Below are positions 43,366-45,671 of a stretch of 64,000 nt of DNA, piece by piece; within the stretch, counting starts at the first letter, position 1, and each line of letters starts with the position of its first letter. Below the pieces are notes generated by a model that saw only the letters and a program-made list of their open reading frames with translations, was not told the origin of the DNA and ran no database searches. This DNA comes from Escherichia coli (lineage in GTDB: Bacteria; Pseudomonadota; Gammaproteobacteria; Enterobacterales; Enterobacteriaceae), in the NCBI RefSeq assembly GCF_003334335.1, contig NZ_QOWQ01000024.1. One strand, given 5' to 3'. The position numbers and the translations under genes were made by a program.

Positions 43366-43801
43366 GTTTCATCCTGTCCATTATGATGCGCACGGTCGCC
43401 TGCGTTTACCCTTGCTCTTCTGGCTTGTGCTATTGCTTCAGGCGCGAACCTGGGTGCTGTTTGTCATTGCCGGTGCGTCGCGCGAGCAGGGTACTGCGCT
43501 GCTAAATCTGTTTTATCCCGATCACGATAATTTCTGGCTGGGGCTGATTCCTGGCATTCCGGCGGTGCTGGCGTTTTTGTTGAGCGGTCGGCGGGCTACG
43601 TTTCCTCGCACCTGGCGTGTACTCTATTTTCTGTTGCTGTTGGCGCAGGTGGTTTTACTTTGCTGGCAACCGTGGCTGTGGCTGAACGGTGAATCCGTTA
43701 GCGGTATCGGTCTGGCGCTGGTAGTGGCGGATATTGTGGCGTTAATCTGGCTGCTGACCAATCGACGTTTACGCGCTTGTTTTAATGAAGTAAAAGAATA
43801 A
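43346..43801 (+). CDS. yfeZ: inner-membrane protein YfeZ
   Basis: About 150-aa hydrophobic ORF overlapping the ypeA 3-prime end. The exact start (43346 or 43352) is uncertain. Confidence 0.85.
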
Positions 43802-43861
43802 CGGCACTTTTTGGTGAATTTGCACTCCAAGCAACGTTATTGAATAACCAAAGGAAGTGAC

Positions 43862-44448: not shown

Positions 44449-45432
<984 letters not shown>

Positions 45433-45489
45433 GCGTTTCTGATTCATTGATTAAAGGCCAGGCAGTAACATTACTGACTGGCCTCAGAT

Positions 45490-45628
45490 TGTTGACCAAG
45501 TGCGCGTTGTACACGCCGGATGCGGCGTGAACGCCTTATCCGGCCTACGAAATCGTGCTAATTCAATATATTGTGGGCTCCACGTAGGCCTGATAAGCGT
45601 AGCGCATCAGGCAGTTTTGCGTTTGTCA
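45490..45628. repeat. RIP-type BIME (REP - IHF-site core - REP)
   Basis: Two inverted REPs flank the AT-rich core AATTCAATATATTG, which fits the IHF consensus WATCAANNNNTTR at 12 of 13 positions. Same element family as 56431..56567. Confidence 0.8.
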
Positions 45629-45671
45629 GCACTCTCAGACCAGCCAGTAACATTACTGACTGGCCTTTTTA

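Follow-up and report, generated by a model that had tools for sequence, protein, structure and literature searches.

Layout of the yfeX-yfeW spacer

The window analyzed in this study is a 64,000-nucleotide stretch of Escherichia coli DNA (assembly GCF_003334335.1, contig NZ_QOWQ01000024.1) that equals E. coli K-12 across all 461 compared bases and agrees with the K-12 annotation in gene order. We focused on the 239-nt spacer between the convergent genes yfeX and yfeW, which houses two copies of a palindromic hairpin, designated H1 and H2, and between them a repetitive IHF-binding palindromic element (RIP; IHF, integration host factor). RIP, RIB, and BIME-1 (BIME, bacterial interspersed mosaic element) are names for elements with the order REP-IHF-REP (REP, repetitive extragenic palindromic sequence) (Boccard and Prentki, 1993; Bachellier et al., 1994; both as cited in Ton-Hoang et al., 2012, PMC3333891). 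What is unusual at this locus is the long duplication of host sequence around the RIP and the tandem amplification of the RIP together with it. The features of the locus, in window coordinates, are as follows.

44533-45432, plus strand: yfeX coding sequence (porphyrinogen peroxidase; b2431 in the K-12 annotation), stop codon at 45430-45432
45453-45455, unstranded: A-tract AAA to the left of H1, which gives the U-tract UUUAAU in yfeW-sense transcripts; the aaa is kept before the single hairpin of Citrobacter
45456-45483, unstranded: H1, first hairpin copy, a 28-bp near-palindrome, GGCCAGGCAGTAACATTACTGACTGGCC; as a 30-nt repeat, 45455-45484
45456-45637, unstranded: 182-bp repeat unit (hairpin plus RIP), present once in the window
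45485-45514, plus strand: left outer motif of the long-form RIP, CAGATTGTTGACCAAGTGCGCGTTGTACAC, a partial inverted repeat of the right outer motif
45515-45548, plus strand: Y-type REP, found by motif search; six copies in the window at up to three mismatches
45549-45583: L linker, carrying the IHF-consensus-like site
45561-45573, plus strand: IHF-consensus-like site ATTCAATATATTG, matching WATCAANNNNTTR at 12 of 13 positions in a test of sequence only
45584-45612, plus strand: Z1-type REP with its 5' GTAG at 45584, inverted relative to the Y REP
45613-45636, plus strand: right outer motif of the long-form RIP, AGTTTTGCGTTTGTCAGCACTCTC, common to the RIP at 56.4 kb
45638-45665, unstranded: H2, second hairpin copy in direct orientation, GACCAGCCAGTAACATTACTGACTGGCC, with G2>A and C at position 7; as a 30-nt repeat, 45637-45666
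45666-45673, plus strand: T-tract TTTTTATT, the U-tract for yfeX-sense transcripts, overlapping the yfeW stop codon
45672-46976, minus strand: yfeW (pbp4B) coding sequence (penicillin-binding protein 4B), annotated at 1305 nt, stop codon at 45672-45674, convergent with yfeX

An earlier reading of the letters alone (the original prediction) had described H1 and H2 as a direct, near-palindromic repeat pair identical at 26 of 28 positions, and both the sequence and a repeat search bear this out. With the flanking A and T, the repeat extends to 30 nt at 93% identity; the two starts are 182 nt apart, and the 14-nt arms of each copy are 93% complementary. Allowing up to three mismatches, the 22-nt hairpin core matched only at H1 and H2 in the 64-kb window, and none of 100 shuffles contained any match. 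The outermost 47 nt of H-RIP-H on the left and right form an 81% inverted repeat. The T-run after H2 was also correctly seen to reach the yfeW stop: TTTTTATT overlaps the codon at 45672-45674. The same T-tract follows the hairpin in alleles with a single copy and in Citrobacter.

By its sequence, the segment between H1 and H2 is a genuine, ordinary long-form RIP/BIME-1 of about 152 nt. A RIP had been predicted here and is real, but it spans about 45485-45636 and not 45490-45628. Its Y and Z1 REPs are inverted relative to each other, as in other RIPs, with inverted arms (45535-45549 and 45583-45597) that are 93% complementary. The linker with the IHF-like motif is also found in RIP1 and in a second RIP of the window at about 56.4-56.57 kb, and is nearly identical to that of both these K-12 RIPs. 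The RIP aligns end to end with the 56.4-kb copy, outer motifs included. A search of Rfam returned sub-threshold matches to REP-derived families only (naRNA4 and ES036) and no curated RNA family at the region. An ordinary BIME tandem array with a different REP pair (1.9 copies of 100 bp) lies at 33546-33730 of the window.

Distribution of the hairpin and the RIP

The hairpin was surveyed in 5,426 complete E. coli genomes using a 45-nt query centered on H1. The query matched 6,842 places, with a median of one per genome; two matches were present only in about 1,400 K-12-like genomes. The original prediction had asked whether the palindrome accompanies other RIP copies genome-wide. The hairpin was found at the yfeX/yfeW locus only, and the other RIPs examined were without it. 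The possibility that the hairpin is part of the RIP consensus was ruled out, as it is unique to this locus and absent from the 56.4-kb RIP, from RIP1, and from a RIP in the yfeZ-yfeY spacer.

In three Citrobacter species (sp. R56, Awk 4, and NCU1), one homologous hairpin and no RIP follow directly after yfeX. The Citrobacter hairpin reads gaaaGGCCAG(T/C)CAGTGAT(G/A)TCACTGACTGGCCtttttg. Between Escherichia and Citrobacter, the stem holds one compensatory change, A-U to G-C, which weakly supports its conservation; in a covariation test, this single pair was not significant against shuffles. Since a single RIP-free homologous copy, with both the A-tract and the T-tract, is present in Citrobacter, the A-tract/hairpin/T-tract is an old bidirectional-terminator-like element of the yfeX/yfeW locus that predates the RIP. 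This agrees with one half of the earlier proposal, that a pre-existing terminator was duplicated upon RIP insertion: the hairpin is pre-existing and locus-specific, and its duplication may have come with RIP insertion.

Among the 5,426 E. coli genomes, the full K-12-type arrangement was present in 1,400 and the hairpin/RIP junctions in 1,411 (26%). In about 74%, the region spans 279 instead of 461 bp, exactly 182 bp less, and contains one hairpin and no RIP. With n denoting the number of hairpin-RIP units, the latter are n=0 alleles, reading attaaa-hairpin-tttttatta, and the K-12 type is n=1. None of the 5,426 genomes had a hairpin flanked by two RIPs (n≥2). Two single-hairpin forms are common: one equals H1 of K-12, and the other, with C at position 7 and the loop ACACAA, equals H1 of E. 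whittamii. The n=1 allele occupies one narrow K-12-like haplotype (at least 99.6% identity in the sampled rows), and n=0 alleles are found on many haplotypes of 91-99% identity. Between strain EC93 (n=0) and K-12 (n=1), the left flank shows 0 differences in 290 positions and the right flank shows 4 in 290. The empty sites anticipated by the original prediction do exist as one-hairpin, RIP-free alleles 182 bp shorter, but they are probably not sites that were never occupied. Neither of the refuting conditions named in that prediction, both hairpin copies in all genomes or a hairpin within the RIP consensus, came true. The 182-bp polymorphism is a simple marker separating K-12-like E. coli from most other lineages.

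Several other variants were observed at or near the locus. In 40 evenly spaced sampled rows of E. coli genomes, yfeW was deleted in nine, including the sequence type 131 (ST131) strain EC958, and the single hairpin is then followed by murP. Strains EC958 (locus L003, 1027-1180) and PK8276 (locus L004, 1027-1182) retain about 40 nt of the 3' end and about 87 nt of the 5' end of yfeW, a remnant annotated as a pseudogene, and murP begins almost directly after the hairpin. Loss of yfeW/pbp4B is repeated. Strain PD007 (NZ_CP120910.1, 2549588-2549644), with a genome length that differs from that of MG1655 by no more than 14 bp, has C instead of G at position 7 of H1, which matches H2 there; either a point mutation or gene conversion from one hairpin copy to the other could explain the change. 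At the cysM-yfeS spacer, which carries a RIP (window 56250-56750), the K-12 arrangement with yfeS was present in 1,382 of the 5,426 genomes, and elsewhere cysM is followed by yfeK. The near-equal counts of the yfeS arrangement and the H-RIP-H allele suggest a K-12-type haplotype block across the region.

Loci of other species were fetched via YfeX, one genome per species, and showed the following arrangements.

E. whittamii: H-RIP-H (one unit)
Escherichia sp. E1V33: H-RIP-H-RIP-H (two units)
Escherichia sp. MOD1-EC7003: eight hairpins and seven RIPs
E. albertii type strain: H-RIP followed by a deletion that extends into yfeW
SCPM-O-B-8794 (locus L005; a very divergent genome deposited as E. 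coli): hairpin and yfeW both missing; yfeX and murP separated only by a diverged RIP

Tandem Repeats Finder reported 2.2 copies of 181 bp in E1V33 and 7.2 copies of 182 bp in MOD1-EC7003. The repeat behaves as a variable-number tandem repeat (VNTR), with head-to-tail units of a constant period (181-182 bp) in 0, 1, 2.2, or 7.2 copies, and the arrays always have the form (H-RIP)n-H. The RIP, present once in the window and in all 1,411 RIP-bearing E. coli as is usual for BIME-1, is present twice in E1V33 and about seven times in MOD1-EC7003. The earlier suggestion of a composite repeat unit larger than the classical RIP fits the way in which hairpin and RIP act as a 182-bp tandem unit in these other Escherichia, but not the RIP consensus, to which the hairpin does not belong.

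In five Escherichia lineages, the RIP is found at junctions identical to those of K-12, between direct copies of the whole palindrome. The units differ from the K-12 unit at 4-9 of 182 positions, as compared with 20 of 150 for a paralogous K-12 RIP; hence, the RIP appears to be orthologous among these Escherichia and to represent one insertion older than their split. The units of MOD1-EC7003 have lineage-specific changes in common, which indicates that the expansion took place inside that lineage.

The RIP of SCPM-O-B-8794 abuts murP (L005, 3398-3580) and has 50 mismatches in 149 positions relative to the K-12 RIP. In E. albertii (locus L010, 1098-1500), H2 and the 3' part of yfeW are gone, with ACTCT microhomology at the deletion junction. 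Two of the fetched records carry labels that are probably binning or contamination errors in public records: a 'Citrobacter sp.' metagenome-assembled contig (L006) has a yfeX locus of the E. coli type, its YfeX being 100% identical and its hairpin in the n=0 form, and a contig labelled Chryseobacterium sp. 18061 (L042) encodes an Enterobacteriaceae-type YfeX at 91% identity.

Termination and origin of the duplicated hairpin

The single-hairpin allele has a 13-bp stem with one mismatch, and its predicted folds on the two strands are -20.2 and -20.7 kcal/mol. The stem leads into U5 on one strand and into UUUAAU on the other. In K-12, H1 folds at -20.4 kcal/mol on the plus strand and at -19.7 kcal/mol on the minus strand, where UUUAAU follows. 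H2 folds at -11.3 kcal/mol on the plus strand, where UUUUUAUU follows, and at -22.8 kcal/mol on the minus strand; its weak plus-strand fold is due to two mismatches. The proximal hairpin for each convergent gene is the one without a U-tract. The 216-nt segment as a whole is one long imperfect palindrome in which H1 can pair with H2, and the long-hairpin fold scores -98.8 and -105.6 kcal/mol (z -6.0 and -8.9).

H2 had been predicted to be a working terminator, and it is a plausible candidate for one. A promoter/terminator consensus scanner called no terminator in the region, probably because an internal mismatch interrupts the stem. The proposed mapping of 3' ends by Term-seq lent no support: Supplementary file 1 of Adams et al. 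(2021) contains no curated 3' end in the yfeX/yfeW spacer (MG1655 2549300-2549699), which may reflect low expression. In their Supplementary file 2, Adams et al. (2021) place a Rho termination region at MG1655 2549195(-), about window position 45880, antisense inside yfeW. This position fits yfeX-sense transcription that passes the intergenic hairpins. Insertion of the RIP would have split a compact A-tract/hairpin/T-tract terminator into two one-sided halves. Each convergent transcript would then meet a hairpin without a U-tract first and would cross the RIP to reach the one that bears it. The expected consequence is longer, REP-containing, mutually overlapping 3' untranslated regions (UTRs) together with leakier termination, and the K-12 arrangement looks leakier than the single-hairpin allele.

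With regard to the origin of the arrangement, a plain tandem duplication of hairpin plus RIP, or of RIP plus hairpin, was ruled out, as the arrays start and end with a hairpin beside the original A- and T-tracts. Because the arrays are bounded on both sides in this manner, the first event duplicated the hairpin only. The host sequence forms a direct repeat around the RIP and is single in unoccupied alleles, as in a target-site duplication; this was found in E. coli, and a single copy is also present in Citrobacter. The hairpin duplication thus behaves as a target-site duplication equal to the whole palindrome.

We consider it likely that H-RIP-H of K-12 is the one-unit allele of a 182-bp VNTR composed of the terminator hairpin and the RIP, and that E. 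coli mostly carries secondary losses of it. One RIP insertion in an early Escherichia ancestor would have doubled the palindrome in the manner of a target-site duplication. Later unequal recombination or slippage between the hairpins, or between whole units once two existed, would have gained and lost 182-bp units; a single exchange between H1 and H2 would yield n=0 and n=2 products. The (H-RIP)n-H form is as expected from exchange between hairpin copies. We infer that most single-hairpin E. coli alleles are secondary losses, because the RIP is present in all sampled non-coli Escherichia in which the hairpin is kept, because the flanks of the n=0 strain EC93 match those of K-12 at 290 of 290 positions on the left and 286 of 290 on the right, and because each of the two common single-hairpin forms is identical to a known H1, one to that of K-12 and the other to that of E. 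whittamii. Other observations weigh against this reading. The n=1 allele is on one haplotype and n=0 on many, which an ancestral empty state followed by import would also explain, and no n≥2 allele was present among the E. coli genomes. Only two genomes, both draft assemblies of unclassified Escherichia, showed expansion, and one of them is a short-read assembly whose 1.3-kb array could be mis-sized; a scan of metagenome contigs for an internal hairpin with RIPs on either side gave no matches.

The most serious competing explanation, though an unlikely one, is that the single-hairpin alleles of E. coli were never occupied and that H-RIP-H was imported by homologous recombination into one lineage, probably phylogroup A. 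The confinement of n=1 to a near-uniform haplotype (1,411 genomes), with n=0 on diverse haplotypes at 91-99% identity, speaks for import, as do the single hairpin of Citrobacter as the deeper ancestral state and the K-12 unit, which is only 4-5 differences away from the MOD1-EC7003 and E1V33 units. The imported tract must, however, have been very short, since the K-12 flanks are typical of E. coli and near-identical to those of an n=0 strain up to the hairpins. Import also leaves aside the RIP of every sampled hairpin-retaining non-coli Escherichia and the ease with which deletion between 30-bp direct repeats at 182-bp spacing can recur. It seems improbable, to a somewhat greater degree, that selection rather than neutral change keeps the arrangement, through binding of IHF or gyrase, REP-mediated stabilization of 3' UTRs, or tuned read-through. 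The RIP is retained at the same site in several Escherichia with REPs and IHF-like site intact, and published work ascribes to REPs both effects on 3' UTRs and IHF binding; on the other hand, 74% of E. coli are without the RIP, copy number ranges from 0 to about 7, and about one-fifth of the sampled genomes are also without yfeW.

Two further explanations have very little left to recommend them. If the hairpin belonged to a mobile element, with H-RIP-H or hairpin plus RIP transposing as a composite, the 47-nt outer inverted repeat of 81% would resemble terminal inverted repeats, and the joint tandem amplification of hairpin and RIP would follow naturally. This is effectively refuted by the absence of the hairpin from every other locus of the 5,426 genomes, by the other RIPs without a hairpin, and by the hairpins that stand alone with their A- and T-tracts in Citrobacter and in n=0 alleles. 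Equally remote is the view that H2 is an inverted copy of H1, made when intra-strand template switching lengthened the RIP quasi-palindrome outward, and that it resembles a direct repeat only because the hairpin is palindromic. The 216-nt segment does form a single long imperfect palindrome with a strong fold, but two asymmetric marks, the CA at the center (GTAACATTAC) and position 7, which faces A22 without pairing, have the same orientation in every copy and species. An inverted copy would read GTAATGTTAC, and this origin of H2 was ruled out.

For the insertion itself, the junctions offer a hint. On the strand with the hairpin 5' of the RIP, the hairpin/RIP junctions read GGCC^T; H2 of K-12 reads GGTC^T, and that of other species GGCC^T. 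For the REP-associated transposase TnpAREP of E. coli, cleavage of single-stranded DNA has been reported at C^T sites close to a REP tagged with GTAG, with GGCC^T a stronger context in vitro than GACC^T (Ton-Hoang et al., 2012, PMC3333891). The match is suggestive, but it may be a coincidence of sequence and serves as a hypothesis only. It is conceivable, though doubtful, that the 28-30-bp duplication is the natural footprint of the insertion of a REP doublet mobilized by a REP-associated tyrosine transposase (RAYT). The 3' foot of the palindromic terminator reads GGCC^T on both strands, and nicks at both feet would leave 28-nt 3' overhangs; the 5' ends of the RIP, both T(C/G)AGA..., would be joined to the 3'-OH ends, and gap filling would produce an exact duplication of the palindrome. 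The same sites could phase a later rolling-circle-type amplification into 182-bp units. If this were true, palindromic terminators would be preferred landing pads, and REP/BIME insertion would leave duplications of variable length set by local hairpin geometry, a hallmark that is not currently recognized.

Duplication length can be compared at three loci only and is not constant, being 28-30 bp here, 5 bp at yfeZ-yfeY, and none evident at 56.4 kb. At yfeZ-yfeY, the RIP insert is bounded by a 5-bp direct repeat, TAACG, in E. whittamii and MOD1-EC7003, with no C^T at the junctions. The 56.4-kb RIP has no evident flanking repeat, and a filled/empty comparison is uninformative there since the whole yfeS gene is variable. 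The 5-bp repeat at one locus and the absence of an obvious one at the other argue that duplication length is not fixed.

The yfeZ-yfeY spacer, upstream of yfeY, is a second site of RIP presence and absence. It is empty in E. coli at window 43790-43810 (AGAATAACG|GCAC; about 43797), whereas E. whittamii and E1V33 have a single RIP there and MOD1-EC7003 has a tandem RIP array of 3.0 copies of 130 bp (locus L009, 1357-1746). The MOD1-EC7003 unit includes 9 nt of left flank and is missing the right outer RIP motif. At the yfeX/yfeW locus of strain 98227 (locus L086, 345-1076), an IS200C element is inserted in the T-tract, 5 nt past the single hairpin (GGCCTTTTT|GTGCACAG...); a RAYT-related Y1 transposase has accordingly used the foot of the same hairpin.

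Comparison with known systems

BIME-1 elements were described as single copies without target duplication (Ton-Hoang et al., 2012, PMC3333891). The RIP studied here resembles them in its Y and inverted Z1 REPs, its long linker with an IHF-consensus site, and its position at the 3' ends of convergent genes. Unlike them, it lies between two copies of a 28-30-bp host sequence duplicated in direct orientation and, in other Escherichia, is tandemly amplified along with host sequence. K-12 RIP flanks were heterogeneous in one 50-kb stretch.

In Pseudomonas fluorescens SBW25, REP doublets (REPINs) occur in ordered clusters together with flanking sequences, for which no mechanism was proposed (Bertels and Rainey, 2011, PMC3116915). 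The arrays at yfeX/yfeW are like REPIN clusters and BIME-2 arrays in being ordered units of a REP doublet and a non-REP flank whose copy number varies between strains. They are unlike the P. fluorescens clusters and the z2/y BIME-2 arrays of E. coli in that the REP doublet is a BIME-1 and the flank is a complete, functional-looking terminator palindrome that bounds the array on both sides. The yfeZ-yfeY array (three copies of 130 bp in MOD1-EC7003), by comparison, has only 9 nt of flank in its unit. Another REP amplification that carries flanking sequence was seen in Citrobacter amalonaticus ku-bf3 (locus L017, 3399-3715), where a tandem BIME array (2.9 copies of 109 bp) starts inside the yfeX stop codon and its unit includes about 24 nt of non-REP sequence from that codon.

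Compared with the target-site duplications of transposons and miniature inverted-repeat transposable elements, the direct repeats of host sequence likewise flank the insert directly and element-free alleles hold one copy, whereas the duplication here, at 28-30 bp, is the whole palindrome and its length is not constant. The IS200/IS605 family, to which the RAYTs are related, makes no sizeable duplications. Like a bidirectional intrinsic terminator between convergent genes, the single-hairpin allele has an A-tract, a stem, and a T-tract, and it is conserved into Citrobacter. The K-12 arrangement departs from this plan, since its A-tract and T-tract are on separate copies 182 bp apart and the copy that carries the yfeX U-tract is weak-stemmed.

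To our knowledge, the insertion of REP/BIME (REPIN) elements and the formation of their ordered arrays are still unexplained, and an insertion has never been caught in the act. The yfeX/yfeW locus provides a natural series, namely the ancestral single hairpin, H-RIP-H, and arrays of two and about seven units, together with frequent precise loss. Such a series is useful for studying REP insertion, amplification, and loss, as well as their effect on a bidirectional terminator, and the split terminator is a concrete case for the effects of REPs on convergent 3' UTRs. The locus thus gives a small but genuine indication of the way in which REP elements insert and multiply.

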